Assembly (NCBI GenBank): GCA_023954745.1
Contig: JAGSHC010000006.1
Span: forward strand, 508-64,507
Length of the DNA stretch: 64,000 nt
DNA from: Deltaproteobacteria bacterium
GTDB taxonomy: Bacteria > Myxococcota_A > UBA796 > UBA9615
Reading direction: 5' to 3'
In this document: positions 3,393-64,000 of the stretch, piece by piece
Layout: each line of letters begins with the position of its first letter
Position numbering within the stretch: the stretch's first letter is position 1
Notes under the pieces: model-generated
Database searches by the model: none
What the model was told of the DNA's origin: nothing
Seen by the model: the letters and a program-made list of their open reading frames with translations, nothing else
Program-made: the position numbers and the translations under genes

Positions 3393-3467
3393 GGCGACAT
3401 GGCCAAGTGGTAAGGCAAGGGATTGCAAATCCCTGATTCCCCGGTTCGAATCCGGGTGTCGCCTCCA
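3393..3467 (+). tRNA. tRNA-Cys (anticodon GCA), CCA encoded
   Basis: GGCGACA...TGTCGCC acceptor stem, anticodon loop TTGCAAA, T-arm GGTTCGAATCC, and 3' T-CCA at 3464-3467. Confidence 0.95.
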
Positions 3468-3676: not shown

Positions 3677-4333
3677 ATGCCCCACAGCGGTGGAAACAAC
3701 ATCGTCGAGACCTTCATGGAGAGCAACCTGCTCCAGGCGGAGTGGGTGCTTTGGTTCCTCCTCGTGCTCTTCGTGGCCTGCATCATCGTGATGCTCGTGA
3801 AGTTCGCCTGGTTCGGCATCAACAAGGTGCGCGCCGGCAAGCTCCAGGCGCGGGTGGGGGAGCTCCTCGCCGATGGCAACGTCGACACCTTCCGCAAGGA
3901 TGTCGAAGACCTCGAGGGCACCGAGGCGTGGGTGCTTCGCCACGCCCTCCGCTACACCGAGAGCGGCACGGACGTCGTCGAGACGCAGATGGACGTGGCG
4001 ATGGTGTCCCGCAAGGCACGGATGGAGCGCGGCATCGTGTTCCTCGGCACCGTCGGAGCCAACGCCCCCTTCGTCGGCCTGTTCGGCACGGTGCTGGGCG
4101 TCATCAAGGCGTTCCGAGACATGTCCCTGGAGAGCGAGGCCGGAGCCGCCGCGGTCATGGCCGGCATCTCCGAGGCCCTCGTGGCCACCGCCGTCGGCCT
4201 GATGGTCGCCATCCCCGCTGTCGTTGCATACAACTACCTGTCGCGACAGGTGAAGTCGGTGATGAGCAACTCGGGCTCCCTGAACGAACAGGTGCTGCTG
4301 CGGCTTCGGTCGCCTGACGCACCCAGCGCTTAG
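3677..4333 (+). CDS. exbB: MotA/TolQ/ExbB-family proton channel
   Basis: ORF 3677..4333 with three TM segments and GTVGANAPFVGLFGTVLGVIKAF. Followed by exbD and tonB. An alternative ATG lies at 3716. Confidence 0.85.
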   Translation: MPHSGGNNIVETFMESNLLQAEWVLWFLLVLFVACIIVMLVKFAWFGINKVRAGKLQARVGELLADGNVDTFRKDVEDLEGTEAWVLRHALRYTESGTDVVETQMDVAMVSRKARMERGIVFLGTVGANAPFVGLFGTVLGVIKAFRDMSLESEAGAAAVMAGISEALVATAVGLMVAIPAVVAYNYLSRQVKSVMSNSGSLNEQVLLRLRSPDAPSA

Positions 4334-57316: not shown

Positions 57317-58510
57317 TTAGACGGGTCTCGGCCCGTTCGCCCCCTCGCCGAGGATGCGCGCGACGAACGCCTCCAGTGCACGAGCTCGCGAGCTCCAGGT
57401 CATGGAGCGGGTCGCCTCGGTGCGGGCCCGTCGCGCGGAGGCGGGCTCGTCCAAGGCGCGGCGCAGCGCGTCTGGAGTCTGCCGCGAGTTGGCGAGCTGC
57501 AGGAGCGGCGTCACCTCGGGATCGCCCGCGGTGCCTCGGAGCGGGGTGGCGAGGACCGGACGTCCCGTGGCGATGAGCTCCCGGGTCTTCAGAGGCGCCA
57601 GGCTGTGCCCCAATGGGGAGTCCGCGTAGGGGACCAGCAGCACGTCTGCAGCGTGCAACCACCTCGGGAGGTCGGCGTAGGCGACGGGTGGACGAACGTG
57701 AACGCGCCGGTGTGCAAGGAGTTCCGGGGCAATCGCCACGGGTTCCCCCAGCAACACGAGGTGCAGTCCTGGCACGTCGAGACACGCCGTCAGCACGTCG
57801 GCATCGAGCCGCTCGTCGAGCCGGCCCGCCACCAGAGCGCGGGGGTGCGGGACTCCATCCAGGGGGTCCCCCCCAGGCCCTGGCGCGGCGAAGTGCTCGA
57901 CGTCCACACCGTGGCGTGACAGTCCGCTCCGGGACGGGTTCAGGCCCCGGAGCAGCTCTTCGGAGGGCGCGAGGACCGCGTCGGCGGTGGAAATGAGCTT
58001 CGCCTCCCGCTCGGCGATGGCGGCGTGGTCGTAGCCCGGCCACAGGGAGAAGTCGTCCATGCGGAGATAGATCGAGGCGCGCTCCCCCAGGCTGCCCAGG
58101 ACCCCCGCCATGGTGGGGATCGTCGTGAGAACCAGCGGACGCTCGATGCCGCGCTCCACCATCGCACTGCGCACCGCCCGCGTCATCAGCGCATCGTTGG
58201 CAGCCCGCACCGGCGAGAGCCCGTACGCGGGGACCACCGGGGGGACCAGGCGCGTCAGCGTGGGCGGGGTCGGCAACCATGGAGAACCCGGCGCGGGGGC
58301 TCCGCCAGGCGCGAAGCCGCGCAGCTTCTCCAGCCCTCGGATCAGATCGGCCCTGTTGGCGCGGGGACGGCGCAGACCCGCGGGCTCGACCCAGAGCACC
58401 TTGCGGCCCTCGGCCAGATGAAGCCCGAGGTGCTGGGGGGCTGAGGGACGCCGTCCCCAGTCGTCGGAGAAGACAACGAGGTCCCACGGGGCGATGGTCG
58501 GTCCGGTCAC
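57317..58510 (-). CDS. Glycosyltransferase (TuaH-like / GT1-fold)
   Basis: ORF 57317..58621. WDLVVFSDDWGRRPSAPQHL N-terminus and PLKTRELIATGRPVLATP. GTG 58510 preferred, because ATG 58621 would overlap the divergent kdsA. Confidence 0.65.
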   Translation of the reverse strand: MTGPTIAPWDLVVFSDDWGRRPSAPQHLGLHLAEGRKVLWVEPAGLRRPRANRADLIRGLEKLRGFAPGGAPAPGSPWLPTPPTLTRLVPPVVPAYGLSPVRAANDALMTRAVRSAMVERGIERPLVLTTIPTMAGVLGSLGERASIYLRMDDFSLWPGYDHAAIAEREAKLISTADAVLAPSEELLRGLNPSRSGLSRHGVDVEHFAAPGPGGDPLDGVPHPRALVAGRLDERLDADVLTACLDVPGLHLVLLGEPVAIAPELLAHRRVHVRPPVAYADLPRWLHAADVLLVPYADSPLGHSLAPLKTRELIATGRPVLATPLRGTAGDPEVTPLLQLANSRQTPDALRRALDEPASARRARTEATRSMTWSSRARALEAFVARILGEGANGPRPV

Positions 58511-58524
58511 GCTACGATCCTGCC

Positions 58525-59337
58525 GTGTACGCGCCCGCTTCGCTCTGGCCTCCGGGGGGACCGCTGCTCGTCGCGGGCCCCTGCGCCCTCGAGAGCGAGG
58601 CCATGGCTGTGCGTGTGGCATCCGAACTGGCCGCCCAGTGCGCCAGCCGAAACCTGCCCTTCGTGTTCAAGGCGAGCTTCGACAAGGCCAACCGGACCGC
58701 CGGCAGCTCGTACCGAGGCCCGGGATTGGACGAGGGGTTGAGGTGGCTGGACGCGGCCCGGGGCGCCGCTGACGTGCCGATCCTCACGGACGTACACCTC
58801 CCGTCGCAGTGCGCCATCGCCGCCGAGGTGGCCGACGTGCTTCAGATTCCCGCGTTCCTCAGCCGCCAGACCGACCTCCTCGCCGCCGCGGCGGCGACCG
58901 GGCGCGCCGTCAACCTCAAGAAGGGGCAGTTCCTGGCGCCCTGGCAGGTGAAGCCGGCGCTGACGAAGCTCTCCGCAGCGCCCCAGGTGTGGGTGACGGA
59001 GCGCGGTACGTCGTTCGGCCACGGAGACCTCGTCGTCGACTTCCGCTCGTTCGTCACGATGTCCGAGGCCACCTCGCGCCTGATCTTCGACGCCTCTCAC
59101 TCCGCCCAGACTCCTGGCGGAGGCGGGGACCGCTCGGCGGGGGACCGCCGGTGGATTCCCGTCCTCTCGCGTGCAGCCGCCGGCGCGGGGTACGACGGGC
59201 TCTATCTCGAGGTCCACCCCGACCCCGCCACGGCGCGCTCAGACCGCGATACCCAGTGGCCGCTCCACGAGGTGGGTCCGCTGCTCGATGCCTTCCTCGC
59301 GGTCCGCGCCGCCCGACTGAGCACCGCCTCCGCGTGA
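58525..59337 (+). CDS. kdsA: 3-deoxy-8-phosphooctulonate (KDO-8-P) synthase
   Basis: In-frame part of ORF 58279..59337. GTG 58525. LLVAGPCALES...FVFKASFDKANRTAGSSYRGPG...LTDVH...QIPAFLSRQTDL...FDASHS. Confidence 0.9.
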   Translation: MYAPASLWPPGGPLLVAGPCALESEAMAVRVASELAAQCASRNLPFVFKASFDKANRTAGSSYRGPGLDEGLRWLDAARGAADVPILTDVHLPSQCAIAAEVADVLQIPAFLSRQTDLLAAAAATGRAVNLKKGQFLAPWQVKPALTKLSAAPQVWVTERGTSFGHGDLVVDFRSFVTMSEATSRLIFDASHSAQTPGGGGDRSAGDRRWIPVLSRAAAGAGYDGLYLEVHPDPATARSDRDTQWPLHEVGPLLDAFLAVRAARLSTASA

Positions 59338-60518
59338 GCCCGCGCATCCTCTTCCTCGCCACGCGCGCCCCGTGGCCGCCCATCGGTGGAGACCGTCTCC
59401 GCACCTATCAGCTCTGCCGCGCCCTCGCTGGCCGCGGCCATCTCACCATCGTCTGCCTGGGAGATCCCGCAGAGCAGTCGAGCCTCGAGAGGGGTCTCCC
59501 CTTCGCGTCCTCCATCCGCGTGGTCCCCCTCCGGCGACCCGCCGCCGCGTGGAGAGTGGGGAGGGCGCTCCTCTCGGATGCTCCCATGCAGCAGGCTCTC
59601 TATGCCTCCCCTGCCGCGCGGGCCGCCGTCGCCGAAGAGTGTGCGCGGACCGACGTCGTGGTCGCCCACCTCCTCCGGACCCTGCCCTGGTTGCCAGCCC
59701 TCCACCCACCGTTGGTCCTCTGCCTGCAAGACGCCCTGGCAGCCCAGGCGAAGGAGGCGAGCCGAGCCCCCGGCCTCAGCGGAGGTTGGCGACGGGCCGC
59801 CCTGACCGTCGAACGACCACGTCTCGCGCAGGCGGAGATCGCTGGCGCCGCCCAGGCCCAACGGGTCACCGCCATCACCGAGCGAGACAGGGACGAGCTG
59901 ATCGCGGGCGGCGTGCCAGCCCACAAGCTCGTCGTCGTCCACGCCAGGGTCGAGCGGGTCGCCGACACGCCGAGTACGCCCGAGCCAGGGCGTATCGTCT
60001 TCTTCGGCAACCTGAGGACTGCCTCCAACCGGGACATGGCGCGGTGGCTCGCCCAGCGGGTGATTCCGATGGTGCGCACCCAGGAGCGCGATGCAGCGCT
60101 GCATATCTACGGCGTGGACGCCCCCCCGGAGGTGCGCCGGCTCGACGCCCTGGCGGGGGTCCATGTACACGGCGAGGTCGACGACATGAGCGTCGAAGTC
60201 GCCCGGGCATGGGTGACCGCCTGCCCCCTGCGCTTCGGGAGCGGTGTCCAGAACAAGGTCCTGGAGTCCCTCGCGGTCGGCACGCCCGTGGTGGCGACCC
60301 CCAGGGTGCTCCAGACCCTGCACCCCGATGCAGCCGCGGCCATGGACACCGGCACCCACGAGCGCTCCTTGGCCGTGGCCCTCGTGGAGCTCCTCCGCGA
60401 CAGAGCACGGCGTGACTCCCTCGGAGCGGCGGGCATCGCGTTCGTGCGGCGTCATCACGGCGAGGAGGTGTTCTCGCCCTTGCTCGATGCGGTGAGCCAG
60501 CTCGCGCCGAGGAGATGA
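59334..60518 (+). CDS. Glycosyltransferase family 1 (GT4-type)
   Basis: In-frame part of ORF 58809..60518. GTG 59334 forms a GTGA overlap with the kdsA stop. VSPRILFLATRAPWPPIGGDRLR...GSGVQNKVLESLAVGTPVVATP. Confidence 0.75.
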   Translation: MSPRILFLATRAPWPPIGGDRLRTYQLCRALAGRGHLTIVCLGDPAEQSSLERGLPFASSIRVVPLRRPAAAWRVGRALLSDAPMQQALYASPAARAAVAEECARTDVVVAHLLRTLPWLPALHPPLVLCLQDALAAQAKEASRAPGLSGGWRRAALTVERPRLAQAEIAGAAQAQRVTAITERDRDELIAGGVPAHKLVVVHARVERVADTPSTPEPGRIVFFGNLRTASNRDMARWLAQRVIPMVRTQERDAALHIYGVDAPPEVRRLDALAGVHVHGEVDDMSVEVARAWVTACPLRFGSGVQNKVLESLAVGTPVVATPRVLQTLHPDAAAAMDTGTHERSLAVALVELLRDRARRDSLGAAGIAFVRRHHGEEVFSPLLDAVSQLAPRR

Positions 60519-60536
60519 GCCCCAGGGGCTGCCTCC

Positions 60537-61439
60537 TCAGAGTTCCGTCGCGACCGCCTTGGGAGGAGGGGCATCGAGGGCGCCTGCGTCGGCCTTTCGG
60601 AGCACGGGGAGTCCCACGAGGGAGTTGCCGGCCACGAGCATCAGCCCGCTGAGAGTGGCCCCGTGCACGAGGACCGCTGTCTCCTGCCGGCTGAGCAGCA
60701 CCACGACGAGCACGCCAACCGCAGTGGCTGGGAGGGAGGCCAGGCACGCCACCACGAACAGGCGGCTCGGCGAGGGAGAACCGAGGCGCCGTCCGAACAG
60801 GACGCGATACAGGCCCACCAGGACGCCGATGAGCACAAGCTCCCAGAGCAGCAGGCCCGCCGTGATGAGCGCGCCGATGGTCAGGACCGTGCGGGGCATG
60901 GTGCGGCGAAACGCACTCACGAGCTCGGGACCGTCCACCGAGACCCTCGGTCCCAGAGCCTGGGTGACCTGACCCCACGGCAAGGCGAGGGGTACCGACC
61001 GGTCCTCGGTGTAGAGGAGCAACGCGCGGTCCCCGACCAGGACACGCGGGCGCTGGTCCTCGCCGGTCGCGGCTGGCGGCGCGGACGGCTCGGGGCGGGT
61101 GTCGAACAAGATGACGACCCGATCCGTCTCGATCAGACGGCCCGGAGCAGCCTCCACAGTCGCCCACCCATTCTCGATGTTCACCCGAGGCATGAACGAG
61201 ATGGCGCTGTCTTCCATCGCGTCGATGGTCCGTGAGAAGGACATCATCTGGACGGTGGCCACGAGGGCCGCCCCGAGAAGCAGTCCCAGCAGAAGCACCA
61301 CGAGGGCGAGCCCGCGGCTCGCGTCGGCGGCCCGCCGGTAGATCGAGAAACCGCGGAAGGGCCCAGCAAGCATTTCGAACACCCCCGGAGGCGCCGGTGG
61401 CGACGGGGTCGTGGGTCGGGTCGGCTCAGCGTCGGACAC
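60537..61439 (-). CDS. Hypothetical polytopic membrane protein
   Basis: 300 aa with several TM segments (LALVVLLLGLLLGAALVATV; LTIGALITAGLLLWELVLIGVLVGL; ...). No catalytic motif recognised. Confidence 0.55.
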   Translation of the reverse strand: MSDAEPTRPTTPSPPAPPGVFEMLAGPFRGFSIYRRAADASRGLALVVLLLGLLLGAALVATVQMMSFSRTIDAMEDSAISFMPRVNIENGWATVEAAPGRLIETDRVVILFDTRPEPSAPPAATGEDQRPRVLVGDRALLLYTEDRSVPLALPWGQVTQALGPRVSVDGPELVSAFRRTMPRTVLTIGALITAGLLLWELVLIGVLVGLYRVLFGRRLGSPSPSRLFVVACLASLPATAVGVLVVVLLSRQETAVLVHGATLSGLMLVAGNSLVGLPVLRKADAGALDAPPPKAVATEL

Positions 61440-61471
61440 GGGCGAAACCTAGCAGGACGAGTGGGGAGTGT

Positions 61472-61499
61472 TTGACATCGCAGGAGCGCCGGTTATGTT
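61472..61499 (+). promoter_or_regulatory. Sigma70-type promoter driving a near-leaderless transcript
   Basis: TTGACA (61472-61477), 16 nt spacer, TATGTT (61494-61499). The ATG of the mini-ORF lies 9 nt after the -10 element. Confidence 0.5.
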
Positions 61500-61508
61500 G
61501 CCCCGCAG

Positions 61509-61595
61509 ATGGCCATGCACGTCCACAACACCACCCTCCTCGCCGGCAACTGCGCTTGTTGTCGCTGCGCGTGTCTTTCGACCGGGGTGTGTTGA
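61509..61595 (+). CDS. 28-codon poly-Cys mini-ORF (putative leader peptide)
   Basis: ATG GCC ATG CAC ... TGT TGA encodes MAMHVHNTTLLAGNCACCRCACLSTGVC. The frame is GC3-rich while the other two frames are not. No SD. It is too short to appear in the ORF track. Confidence 0.55.
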   Translation: MAMHVHNTTLLAGNCACCRCACLSTGVC

Positions 61596-61659
61596 CGTTC
61601 GCTAGCTGAAAAGCGCGATTGTTTCGAGCCCGCCCCGGTCTGACCAGGGCGGGCTTTTT
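61582..61659 (+). terminator. Antiterminator arm (61582-61589) plus intrinsic terminator (61628-61659) in the 5' leader of the ATP-grasp gene
   Basis: Terminator GCCCGCCCCGG / CCAGGGCGGGC (10 bp, one mismatch) plus TTTTT (61655-61659). CCGGGGTG (61582-61589) is complementary to CGCCCCGG (61631-61638) in the terminator's 5' arm. Confidence 0.7.
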
Positions 61660-61719
61660 CGTGTCTGCCGTAACGACTCCTCCTCTCTTCTGACATCAAT
61701 CCTCCGATACGGAGACACC

Positions 61720-62703
61720 ATGACCCTTCCCACCGTCCACATCCTCTTCGAGAACCCCGCCTGGAACCCGCCCCTCACGGACGCGCTGGATGCCGCCGGA
61801 TTCCCTTACGAGCTCCACTACCTCGACGACGGCATCATCGACCCGTCCGTCCCCCCCGCCGAAGGCATCTGGATCAACCGCATCAGCCCAAGCTCGCACA
61901 CCCGTGAGCACGGCAGCACCGTGGCCATGGCCCGCGAGTGGCTCTTCTGGCTCGGCGTGCACGGCCGCGAGGTCATCAACGGCAGCCACGCCTTCGAGCT
62001 CGAGATGAGCAAGCTCCGCCAGGAGCTGGTGCTCCGCAAGTACGGCGTCAGGACCCCCCGCACGGTGCTGGCGACCGGCAAGGACAACCTCCTGCGTCTG
62101 GCGCGGACCTTCGAGGGTCCCTTCATCACGAAGCACAACCAGGGCGGCAAGGGCCTCGGGATCATGCTGTTCAACGATGCGGACGTCTTCGCGGACTACA
62201 TCGACAGCCCTGACTTCGACTGGGGGCCGGACGGAAAGATCATCCTCCAGCAGTACATCCAGCCGCCGGAGCCGTTCATCACGCGCGTCGAGCTGGTCGG
62301 AGACCGCTTCCTCTTCGCGATGCGCTCCCGCACCGACGACGGCTTCCAGCTGTGCCCGTCGGATGCCTGCCAGGTCCCGGCGACCAACCCCGCGGTGTGC
62401 CCCATCGACGGTGAGGCCGACGAGATGGCCGCCAACGACAGCAAGTTCTCGCTCGCGCCCATCGCCGCCGACGACCCCCTCGTTCAGCAGCTGCTCGCCC
62501 TCGTTCGTGGGGAGGACCTGCAGATCGCCGGCATCGAGTTCGTCGAAGACGCCAACGGCAACCGATACGTCTACGACATCAACGGCACGACGAACTACTC
62601 GGGCGTTCTCGGTCGCCAGATCGACGTGGACGGCATGACGGAGGTCGTGCGGTACCTCCGCGAGGTGATCGTGCCGCGCATGTCGCGCCGGGTCGCGGCC
62701 TAG
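61720..62703 (+). CDS. ATP-grasp family ligase (RimK-like), function unknown
   Basis: GPFITKHNQGGKGLGIMLF...IILQQYIQ...ITRVELVGDRF...IAGIEFVEDANGNRYVYDINGTTN. GGAGA SD. Confidence 0.75.
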   Translation: MTLPTVHILFENPAWNPPLTDALDAAGFPYELHYLDDGIIDPSVPPAEGIWINRISPSSHTREHGSTVAMAREWLFWLGVHGREVINGSHAFELEMSKLRQELVLRKYGVRTPRTVLATGKDNLLRLARTFEGPFITKHNQGGKGLGIMLFNDADVFADYIDSPDFDWGPDGKIILQQYIQPPEPFITRVELVGDRFLFAMRSRTDDGFQLCPSDACQVPATNPAVCPIDGEADEMAANDSKFSLAPIAADDPLVQQLLALVRGEDLQIAGIEFVEDANGNRYVYDINGTTNYSGVLGRQIDVDGMTEVVRYLREVIVPRMSRRVAA

Positions 62704-62749
62704 CGCGTCCCGGGAGCAGGGCGTGCCCCCCGCCTCTATGGTGGCCCGC

Positions 62750-63706
62750 ATGGACCGTGCCCTCTTCATCCTCCTCGCTCTGCTCCTCGGGGGTTGCCTC
62801 TCGCCGTTCGGTCTCGGTGACGACGACGACGTCGCAGCCAACGACGACGACGCCACGGGGGACGACGACGACGCGGCCGATGACGACGACGCGGCCGATG
62901 ACGACGACGCGTCCGATGACGACGACTCCGCCAGCGACGATGACGACGCCAGCGACGATGACGACGCCAGCGACGATGACGACGCCACCGCCGACGACGA
63001 CGACGCCACCGGGGACGACGACGACGCCACCGCCACGCCCCTGGCGTTCATCTACGCGCACACGGCGGACACGCTCTACACGGTGGACCCGACGACCTTC
63101 GCCACCACCGCGGTGGGCGCATTCACCGGGGCAAACTTCCTCAGCCCGGACATCACCGACATCGCCATCGACCCAGCCGGGAACATGTACGCCATCGGCT
63201 TCAGCGATGTGTACACCGTCGATCCAGTGACCGCGGCCCTTACGCATCTCGGCACGTACTTCGACTTCGGACCCAGCGTCAATGCGGCCACCTGCCTGCC
63301 CGACGGCACCCTCATCATCGGCGGCGCGGGGAACCTGTACGAAGCCAGCACGACCGCCGCCACGCGCACCCTCATCGGCACGGTGACAGGAGACTGGATC
63401 TACGCGGGCGACACCGTGGGGCTCCCCGATGGACTGCTCTACAACCTGATGGCGCAGACGGACCCGAGCAACCCAACGTCGCTGCTGACCATCGACGCCG
63501 CCACGATGGCCACGAACGTGCTCGGCGCGACGGGCCAGGGAGCGATGTTCGGCCTCGCGTATCACGCGGGGAACGACCTCGTGTACGGCTTCAACGAGAG
63601 CGGGGAGATCTTCACCATCGACCCTCTCACGGGCGCCGCGACACTCCAGGCGTCCACCGGCCTCGCCTTTTGGGGCGCCACTACGAACCCCGCGCGGTGG
63701 CAGTAG
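62750..63706 (+). CDS. Lipoprotein with a ~70-aa poly-Asp repeat region and a beta-rich C-terminal domain
   Basis: In-frame part of ORF 62723..63706. Lipobox LLALLLGGC at ATG 62750, (DDDDA[AST])n repeats, then repeated ...LYTVDP / VYTVDP / IFTIDP blades. Confidence 0.65.
   Translation: MDRALFILLALLLGGCLSPFGLGDDDDVAANDDDATGDDDDAADDDDAADDDDASDDDDSASDDDDASDDDDASDDDDATADDDDATGDDDDATATPLAFIYAHTADTLYTVDPTTFATTAVGAFTGANFLSPDITDIAIDPAGNMYAIGFSDVYTVDPVTAALTHLGTYFDFGPSVNAATCLPDGTLIIGGAGNLYEASTTAATRTLIGTVTGDWIYAGDTVGLPDGLLYNLMAQTDPSNPTSLLTIDAATMATNVLGATGQGAMFGLAYHAGNDLVYGFNESGEIFTIDPLTGAATLQASTGLAFWGATTNPARWQ
62819..63025 (+). repeat. In-frame 18-bp-type tandem repeats encoding poly-Asp (DDDDAx)
   Basis: GAC/GAT runs interrupted by GCx-xxx codons, about 11 units. 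Several adjacent units are identical (GACGATGACGACGCCAGC three times; GATGACGACGACGCGGCC twice). Confidence 0.9.
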
Positions 63707-63759
63707 TGACCGACGGACTCGCCACCAGCGGCGACGCGCAGCGTCGAGGCCCTCTTCTC

Positions 63760-64000
63760 GTGTCCGACCTCATGACGCGGGGGGTGCGCACCCTCGGCCC
63801 CACGGGAAACCTCGCCGAGGTGAGTGACCTCATGAGCACCTACCGCATTCGGCACGTGCCCGTGGTCGACAGCGAGTGCCGCATCCTGGGAATCGTGAGC
63901 CAGCGGGACCTGCTCCGCGGCGCCCTCGGTGGGGGGAGCGACTTGCCCGCGAGCATCCAGCGCGCCTATCTGCGCAGCATTCCCATCGACGAGGTCATGG
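63760..64000 (+). CDS. CBS-domain protein (5' part; continues beyond the window)
   Basis: My translation gives VSDLMTRGVRTLGPTGNLAEVSDLMSTYRIRHVPVVDSECRILGIVSQRDLL... The start may instead be GTG 63706, which overlaps the upstream TAG. Confidence 0.7.
   Translation, partial: MSDLMTRGVRTLGPTGNLAEVSDLMSTYRIRHVPVVDSECRILGIVSQRDLLRGALGGGSDLPASIQRAYLRSIPIDEVM

Follow-up and report, generated by a model that had tools for sequence, protein, structure and literature searches.

The classical enterobacterial attenuators (trpL, hisL, leuL, pheL, thrL, and ilvL) share a common design: a run of codons specifying the sensed amino acid lies in a short open reading frame (ORF), the stop codon of this ORF adjoins one arm of an antiterminator, and this antiterminator and an intrinsic terminator are mutually exclusive. 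RNA that is not translated terminates, and rare codons are used, as exemplified by the rare CUA codon of leuL. Here, we analyzed a Cys-rich mini-ORF in front of an ATP-grasp ligase gene in a 64,000-nucleotide stretch of a Deltaproteobacteria bacterium genome (assembly GCA_023954745.1, contig JAGSHC010000006.1, positions 508 to 64,507; in the following, this whole stretch is termed the window), which a preliminary description, made from the sequence alone, had proposed to be a cysteine-sensing attenuator. The locus has the above-mentioned sequence traits, folding of the window RNA predicts that untranslated RNA would terminate, and we consider it quite probable that the mini-ORF and the adjoining RNA elements constitute a ribosome-mediated transcription attenuator, with cysteine codons as regulatory codons, upstream of the ATP-grasp ligase. 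Unlike the enterobacterial leaders, which have Shine-Dalgarno sequences (SDs), the leader in the window lacks an SD and appears to begin at or near the 5' end of the transcript. Further differences are that it would sense cysteine, that its target is an orphan ATP-grasp ligase and not a recognized biosynthetic operon, and that it belongs to a lineage of Myxococcota-like metagenome-assembled genomes (MAGs) and Nitrospirota.

Cys-rich leaders as such are already known. In Mycobacterium smegmatis, leaderless polycysteine short ORFs (sORFs), the so-called 'Cys ribulon', have been shown experimentally (Canestrari et al., 2020; 10.1101/834739). Ribosome stalling on their Cys codons at low cysteine relieves the repression of downstream genes, and in the dissected case, Ms5788A, the SD of the next gene is unmasked, which is translational attenuation without a terminator (10.1101/834739). 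The preliminary description had correctly referred to polycysteine attenuators of mycobacteria (10.1101/834739), except that these act by sequestration of an SD and not by termination of transcription. The window resembles the Cys ribulon in the position of the Cys run toward the C-terminal end of the sORF and in the leaderless-type start, which is a prediction here, but it differs from Ms5788A by an intrinsic terminator with a covarying antiterminator and by an SD that is part of no conserved pairing. Moreover, the mycobacterial targets are annotated cysteine-metabolism genes, whereas the target in the window is an orphan ligase; the likeness is one of design, and no sequence homology is claimed. 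In Deinococcus deserti, a leaderless peptide of 10 amino acids with two Cys precedes cysS, with its start codon at the mapped transcription start, and a possible role in attenuation has been proposed, according to the part of that report considered here (PMC4007540; de Groot et al., 2014). For actinobacterial cys and cbs genes, Cys leader peptides without a recognizable terminator have been predicted (PMC1262725; Seliverstov et al., 2005). The leaders of these two reports share with the window a short Cys-containing peptide upstream of a gene and a proposed attenuation, but they precede cysS or cysteine-synthesis genes, whereas the leaders analyzed here have 3-8 Cys, a full covarying terminator/antiterminator, and a different target. 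The novel aspects of the locus are its lineage, the completeness of its terminator/antiterminator pair, and its target from an orphan RimK/LysX-like ATP-grasp family. Literature searches yielded no relevant report of a Cys attenuator from Myxococcota or of an ATP-grasp protein with induction under cysteine or sulfur starvation, nor did they reveal an earlier account of the present element.

The leader promoter consists of a -35 hexamer TTGACA (61472-61477) and a -10 hexamer TATGTT (61494-61499), both on the plus strand, as are all elements described in the following unless stated otherwise. The end of the -10 hexamer is 9 nucleotides (nt) away from the ATG of the mini-ORF at 61509. This TTGACA-16-TATGTT arrangement (61472-61499), which had already been pointed out, was the sole sigma-70-like site in the scanned region 60400-62800, with shuffled sequences averaging 0.1 sites, and no second promoter-like site was found before the ATP-grasp gene in this region. 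No SD precedes the ATG at 61509, and the 5' untranslated region would be ~0-3 nt long with the predicted start site. For comparison, we collected 80 species-level genome loci, 8 metagenome loci, and 5 further close relatives of the ATP-grasp gene, which were numbered L001-L093. The -35 hexamer is conserved in the close relatives L081-L084, L089, and L092 (73-87% ATP-grasp identity), all of which have TTGACA, 16 nt, TAnnTT, 9-10 nt, and an ATG or GTG. About 30 more distant loci, read by eye, have TTGC or TTGAC, 16-18 nt, a TAnnnT-like -10 element, 6-10 nt, and a start codon, likewise without an SD; a strict automatic promoter scan, with a threshold of 9 or more matches to the 12 consensus positions, picked up just 14 of 43 loci. 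As the start codon stays at the expected transcription start across this wide divergence, the proposed near-leaderless start gains support from the close relatives and, by eye, from the distant loci, and the mini-ORF would probably be translated from a leaderless or near-leaderless mRNA with a putative transcription start at or just before its start codon.

The mini-ORF was found exactly where it had been described (61509-61595). It encodes MAMHVHNTTLLAGNCACCRCACLSTGVC with 28 codons, followed by a TGA stop codon. Its Cys-codon run TGC GCT TGT TGT CGC TGC GCG TGT (codons 15-22, 61551-61574) comprises five Cys codons, three of which are TGT, and in the whole ORF four of the six Cys codons are the rare TGT. 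The sixth Cys (codon 28), which had been noted just before the stop codon, is present in the window but kept in its closest relatives only. The reported bias in the GC content of third codon positions (GC3) was reproduced, with 0.79 in the leader frame versus 0.52 and 0.63 in the other two frames. All codons ahead of the Cys run (codons 1-14) end with G or C, as in the genes of this genome, and the T-ending codons cluster in the run. The leader Cys codons across loci are 157 TGT versus 94 TGC (63% TGT), whereas those of the adjacent ATP-grasp genes are 15 TGT versus 146 TGC (9% TGT), which corresponds to an odds ratio of 16 and a Fisher p of ~3e-29, a value that overstates independence as the loci are related. 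The single tRNA gene detected in the window (3393-3467, plus strand) encodes a tRNA-Cys with the anticodon GCA, and as this tRNA must read both TGC and TGT, the TGT codons of the leader would be read by wobble. The preference for the rare, slower TGT fits a stalling sensor.

The RNA elements of the putative switch can be divided into four regions. Region 2 (61580-61589) is the antiterminator arm GACCGGGGTG, which lies within leader codons 24-27, and the TGA stop codon (61593-61595) follows 3 nt past this arm at a position that is fixed in an alignment of 19 leaders (A2), which begins at their last Cys codons and ends with the tail of the terminator. Region 3 (61627-61640) and region 4 (61643-61655) are the 5' and 3' arms of the terminator hairpin (61627-61655; ~12-13 base pairs (bp), -23 to -24 kcal/mol), and the U-tract TTTTT (61655-61659) completes this intrinsic terminator, which is separated by 60 nt from the ATP-grasp ATG at 61720, in agreement with the strong terminator predicted earlier. 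As the preceding gene (60537-61439) is encoded by the minus strand, the terminator ends no other gene. The segment 61631-61640 of region 3 (CGCCCCGGTC) also pairs with region 2. A pairing of CCGGGGTG (61582-61589) with CGCCCCGG (61631-61638) had been proposed, and this pairing was confirmed, but the helix is longer than assumed, with 10 bp between 61580-61589 and 61631-61640. Region 1 (61526-61542) is tentative; in minimum free energy (MFE) folds of the ribosome-free RNA it pairs with region 2 and would thus act as an anti-antiterminator. The SD of the ATP-grasp gene (GGAG, 61711-61714) is outside any conserved alternative pairing.

Both mutually exclusive helices are supported by covariation in A2. 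In the antiterminator (columns 13-22 with 77-86), 88.4% of the cells are paired, and six of the ten pairs have changed on both sides (13 cells). The covariation of 0.267 was reached by none of 500 shuffles (shuffle mean 0.138), and sliding the partner by 1-3 columns as a control reduced the paired fraction to 37-54%. The 9-bp core of the terminator behaved similarly, with 88.6% of the cells paired, 21 cells changed on both sides, a covariation of 0.302 that was again reached by none of 500 shuffles (mean 0.128), and 33-55% pairing when the partner was slid by 1-3 columns. Compensatory changes of the antiterminator are exemplified by CCAGGG/CCCTGG in L008, CCAAGG/CCTTGG in L041, and TCGGGG/CCCCGA in L019. 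As the conserved CCGGGGTG arm translates to (T/A)GV(C/R), it also accounts for this recurring tail of the leader peptides. With seven close relatives, the RNAalifold consensus was the antiterminator, in which the helix is prolonged by pairing of the last Cys codons with region 4.

To follow the competing folds, we placed a ribosome-sized mask with an assumed footprint on the window leader and calculated equilibrium folds. Without a ribosome, the RNA formed the region 1-2 helix and the terminator. With the A site on Cys15, Cys17, or Cys18, it formed the antiterminator (61581-61589 with 61631-61639), and a ribosome positioned further along, at Cys20, Cys22, or the stop codon, resulted in the terminator. 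According to these model folds, only codons 15, 17, and 18, the first three for Cys, would be positioned to relieve termination, and this placement of the regulatory codons is comparable to the spacing in the trp leader. The masked folds of the window thus reproduced the attenuator logic that had been suggested, with the antiterminator at the first Cys codons and the terminator at the stop codon.

In the resulting model, transcription would start a few nt from the ATG at 61509, and a 70S ribosome would load on the near-leaderless mRNA and trail the polymerase. With plentiful Cys-tRNA(Cys), the ribosome would reach the TGA at 61593 and cover region 2 (61580-61589), upon which regions 3 and 4 would pair to give the terminator hairpin (61627-61655) with its U5 tail, and the polymerase would release a ~150-nt transcript. 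With scarce charged tRNA(Cys), the ribosome would stall at codons 15, 17, and 18, which are mostly wobble-read TGT, and the free region 2 would capture the 5' arm of the terminator once it is made, resulting in read-through into the ATP-grasp gene and, in this clade, probably also into the genes for a DUF4394 lipoprotein and a CBS protein. Untranslated RNA would form the region 1-2 and region 3-4 helices and terminate. The analysis directly shows the sequence elements and how they are conserved, covariation in both helices, a biased codon choice, and a switch in silico; where transcription starts, that the ORF is translated, that the leader responds to cysteine, and which role the enzyme has are inferred.

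The leader accompanies ATP-grasp genes far beyond the window. When we searched the coding strand of the 300 nt upstream of the related ATP-grasp genes, as had been suggested as a check, a poly-Cys segment (at least 4 Cys in 8 residues) was found in 41 of the 85 loci that have at least 300 nt of upstream sequence, versus ~1.6 expected from the background of 0.019 per 300 nt in the rest of the loci, and T-tailed hairpins occur at a window-like position in ~20 loci. In other loci, a strong hairpin (GCCGCCCC...GGGCGGC) is retained, but its U-tract is poor. Where genome loci have a leader (36 loci), the leader ORF stops 76-166 nt before the ATP-grasp match. The N-termini and lengths of the leaders vary freely, as seen with MATHVTHQHLLAGNCLCCCCACRKTGV (L039), MISTVNIQMTAGNCACCCCCSTAPQAS (L036), VFNANNNVALANNCTCCCCCCCC (L014), and MMSLNVITTDVSGNGTCCCCCCCTSTPW (L077), and the Cys run stays at 3-8 Cys, in which interrupting codons (GCT, CGC, GCG, and others) always keep the frame. 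A leader with alternating Cys codons, MTCKLNIRDLHTHGAKCICRCSCSCSIIDLGVLMR, is followed by a perfect 13-bp terminator in L085. The lineages named among the 80 genome relatives are Myxococcota, Myxococcales, Bradymonadia, Deltaproteobacteria, Polyangiaceae, and Nitrospira, with no Actinobacteria among them. The lineage of the sensor had been described as non-actinobacterial, and this agrees with the absence of Actinobacteria from the 80 relatives, but a leaderless Cys leader had been proposed earlier for Deinococcus deserti cysS (PMC4007540).

Two Nitrospirota loci, L069 and L079, have the leader. In L079, which is from a Nitrospiraceae MAG, the leader MGVPPGCCRCACSTGNVG precedes an ATP-grasp gene whose product is just 43% identical to that of the window. 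At the nucleotide level, the L079 leader (...GCCRCACSTGNVG, ~2820-2874) resembles the CCRCACLSTGVC segment of the window (61557-61595), which, given the 43% identity of the ATP-grasp proteins, suggests either a joint transfer of leader and gene or an old leader. A covariance model built from A2 matched the 64-kb window once, at 61571-61664 with 71.9 bits, and there was no second copy of the element in this stretch. Across the loci, the model matched upstream of ATP-grasp genes, besides a few weak reverse-strand matches and one in L022. The latter, a weak 22-bit match at 3916-3982 (minus strand) just downstream of the ATP-grasp gene and on the opposite strand to it, is probably a GC-rich terminator hairpin that resembles regions 3 and 4.

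Several observations weigh against this interpretation of the leader as an attenuator. The leader is absent in about half of the related ATP-grasp loci, and an Rfam search of 20 leader-less loci detected tRNAs only, with no riboswitch or T-box in place of the leader. Even among the loci with leader, L003, L005, L007, L016, L027, and others lack a clear terminator or have hairpins that no U-tract follows, and the mechanism may differ there. The region 1-2 helix, which is present in the MFE fold of the window, is poorly conserved (judged partly by eye) and outside the RNAalifold consensus. The TGT excess could in part reflect a constraint on RNA structure, namely U-G pairs with region 4. The ATP-grasp protein is without a known link to cysteine, and its neighbors offer no consistent hint. 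Finally, in full-length equilibrium folds with a ribosome at the first Cys codon, only 10 of 23 loci switched to the antiterminator. We therefore rejected equilibrium MFE switching as the sole test, and the model relies on co-transcriptional kinetics. In the truncation test that was adopted afterwards, the RNA was cut before the 3' arm of the terminator and then folded, and the 5' arm of the terminator paired with the 3' end of the ORF in 19 of 19 loci, with duplex energies of -13 to -24 kcal/mol; in 15 of the 19 loci, no more than 5 of 200 shuffles attained the observed energy.

In two of the leader-less loci, the sequence upstream of the ATP-grasp gene is repetitive. L034 has a (GTGCCC)5 repeat at 2835-2866 that reads CPCPCPCPCP in one frame, and as this is a mere hexamer repeat, it was rejected as a leader. 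L035 contains four tandem copies of a ~24-nt unit, catggctgcatcgagcgaccgcg, at ~2840-2960.

In another reading, the leader is translated and regulatory without acting by Cys-specific intrinsic termination, and instead responds to general translation stress or to thiol or oxidative stress, or acts via Rho or the translation initiation of the ATP-grasp gene. Neither a conserved structure of the spacer between the terminator and the ATP-grasp ATG nor a conserved pairing of the SD was found in nine relatives. SD sequestration of the mycobacterial type was rejected, since the spacer has no conserved structure in these relatives, the SD is 52 nt beyond the terminator, and an intrinsic terminator is present instead. 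What speaks for a mechanism of this kind is the pyrimidine-rich, G-poor, and thus rut-like character of the spacer in all relatives, together with the several related leaders that have no U-tract, the action of mycobacterial Cys leaders on translation (10.1101/834739), and the actinobacterial Cys leaders without terminators (PMC1262725). However, textbook intrinsic terminators, in which the antiterminator targets the 5' arm, are present in the window and ~20 further loci, the SD of the ATP-grasp gene is in no conserved pairing, and the enrichment is specific to Cys codons, and we thus regard regulation other than by Cys-specific termination as very unlikely. The spacer itself (61660-61706, and likewise in L001, L039, L081-L084, L089, and L092) has repeated CUCC/CCUCC motifs in its pyrimidine-rich, G-poor sequence and could be a Rho-loading site or a weak mask of the SD.

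The gene that would be controlled by the attenuator (61720-62703) encodes a RimK/LysX-like ATP-grasp ligase of 327 amino acids that belongs to an uncharacterized family with 1813 detected homologues (Pfam PF08443, E = 1e-7). The scores of the NCBIfam equivalogs are all far below the cut-offs (rimK_fam 61.1/143.4, LysX 46.2/275.6, S6-Glu ligase 21.3/331). The best sequence matches in the PDB are RimK (E = 3e-9) and LysX (3vpd, 3e-7; 1uc8, 4e-4). An AlphaFold2 model with a predicted local distance difference test score (pLDDT) of 83 is nearest to LysX, ArgX, and RimK (Foldseek E = 4.5e-17 to 1e-14, template modeling (TM) score 0.64-0.69, ~16% identity), and the Foldseek matches also include the graspetide ligase PsnB, the fold being otherwise generic for RimK, LysX, and Ddl. 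The protein thus has the same fold as RimK, LysX, and ArgX and a RimK-type ATP-grasp domain in Pfam, but the identity of ~16%, the NCBIfam scores below cut-off, and invariant motifs of its own, NRISPSSHTR, ITKHNQGGKGLGI, and LCPSDACQ, set it apart from them. The family has three invariant cysteines (Cys212, Cys217, and Cys227), of which two are in LCPSDACQ. No LysW-like or S6-related partner was seen near the ATP-grasp gene, and the names of the homologue clusters indicate no function for it. As the attenuator logic predicts induction when the charging of Cys-tRNA falls, we infer that the ligase helps when cysteine or thiols are limiting, be it by supply, salvage, sparing, or in thiol stress. 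That the family performs a step in the cysteine/thiol economy is a tentative assignment, to which we give slightly less than an even chance, with the attenuator as the first functional clue.

The fold of the ligase is also what keeps some weight on the alternative raised in the preliminary description, according to which the Cys-rich peptide is itself the product, such as a RiPP (ribosomally synthesized and post-translationally modified peptide) precursor, a metal-binding mini-protein, or a LysW-like carrier for the ATP-grasp protein, and the terminator sets the peptide-to-enzyme ratio. LysW is a small protein with a zinc site of four Cys and an acidic C-terminal tail, and graspetide cores contain Thr, Ser, or Lys together with Asp or Glu. 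The nearest structural relatives, LysX and ArgX, act on this small carrier protein, the graspetide ligase PsnB is among the fold matches, and in many lineages the gene for the peptide lies in tight linkage with that for the ATP-grasp protein. The peptides themselves do not have the features of such a product: beyond the Cys run no residues are conserved, the length varies freely between ~17 and 40 amino acids, the C-termini vary as well (GVC, GV, AGVR, CCCC, PAAA, TSTPW, CVCS), and the leader peptides contain neither a LysW-type acidic tail nor a graspetide-type core. The (T/A)GV(C/R) tail is explained by the RNA, as it is encoded by CCGGGGTG, which covaries with a non-coding partner. The leader N-terminus evolves far more rapidly than the ligase: in L081 and L084, the ATP-grasp proteins are 86-87% identical to that of the window, and the N-termini of the leaders are almost unrelated. 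The bias for a rare codon speaks for slow decoding rather than for yield. Altogether, the variable peptides and the RNA-level tail render it very improbable that the peptide serves as the product. A dual function, in which the mini-ORF is a cis-acting sensor and its Cys-rich product also a partner or substrate of the ATP-grasp protein, for example a tiny thiol- or metal-bearing carrier peptide, has in our estimate a very slim chance; if true, it would represent a new peptide-plus-ligase system that is induced by cysteine or thiol stress.

A conditional terminator that is real but operated by a protein or ligand binding to the UGY-rich tract and the helices, with the ORF being incidental, would agree with the conserved helices, with the circumstance that translation of the ORF is predicted from sequence alone, and with the ability of repeated triplets to serve as protein-binding sites, as in the case of Bacillus subtilis TRAP, which binds (G/U)AG repeats, but it is very unlikely, as the Cys frame is open in nearly every locus from a start 6-10 nt past the -10 element to the stop that adjoins the antiterminator, the interrupting codons always keep the frame, all 14 codons before the run are G- or C-ending like those of the genome's genes, and no Rfam family matches. 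An Rfam search of 60000-64000 with permissive thresholds gave no meaningful match, anti-hemB reaching 18 bits versus a cut-off of 49.5. Sub-threshold hits to 'mir-598' and 'MIR4374' at 62819-63031 (minus strand) were rejected as artefacts of a GAC/GAT coding repeat for poly-Asp.

A ribosome-mediated, cysteine-responsive attenuator would carry the full classical form of attenuation, with terminator and antiterminator, to cysteine in Myxococcota-like marine bacteria and Nitrospirota, and it would show that the design of a leaderless Cys leader is not peculiar to Actinobacteria and Deinococcus. Its regulation would also be a starting point for work on an orphan ATP-grasp family that has ~1800 detected members, and it would provide a testable idea for what is annotated as 'hypothetical alpha-L-glutamate ligase'. 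A search for Cys-run ORFs combined with terminators could define a cysteine regulon in uncultured lineages.

The gene neighborhood differs from locus to locus. Neither tblastn with the neighbors nor all-against-all clustering of ORFs across the loci revealed anything shared beyond the ATP-grasp gene, and as the other neighbors are not conserved, leader and ATP-grasp gene form an evolutionary unit. The one neighbor that recurs, in 13 loci and in either orientation, is an SGL-like beta-propeller protein. Pfam searches of the neighbors identified unrelated genes in loci from Clostridia and Nitrospira. The Thermotalea homologue is flanked by a symporter of the Na+:dicarboxylate family and a heavy-metal P-type ATPase, which is a weak hint. 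In the window, the product of the gene downstream of the ATP-grasp gene (62723-63706, plus strand) resembles a lipoprotein, contains a long DDDDA(T/S/A) repeat, and matches DUF4394 at its C-terminus. L089-L093 and the window (58279-64000) share a gene order that begins with a kdsA-like DAHP_synth_1 gene, a glycosyltransferase gene, and a gene for a DUF1189-like membrane protein (minus strand), and continues with the leader, the ATP-grasp gene, the DUF4394 gene, the CBS gene, and an Exo_endo_phos gene (minus strand). As the gaps between the ATP-grasp, DUF4394, and CBS genes are just 10-57 nt, these three probably form one operon in the closest clade, to which this order is confined. The suggested control of the poly-Asp lipoprotein and the CBS protein by the leader is thus plausible in the closest clade only.

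Two observations concern the sequence upstream of the leader promoter in relatives. In L085, a locus of low GC content (GC3 0.39), an apparent 3' end of a tRNA gene (~1671-1705, identified by eye) is located just upstream of the leader promoter. In L092 (3739-5736) and L093 (2409-4406), which have 80% ATP-grasp identity, a gene for an oligopeptide transporter of the OPT family (PF03169, 665 amino acids) is inserted immediately ahead of the leader promoter and in the same orientation. As glutathione or peptides are transported by some OPT proteins, the OPT gene beside these leaders may be a weak thiol-related hint.

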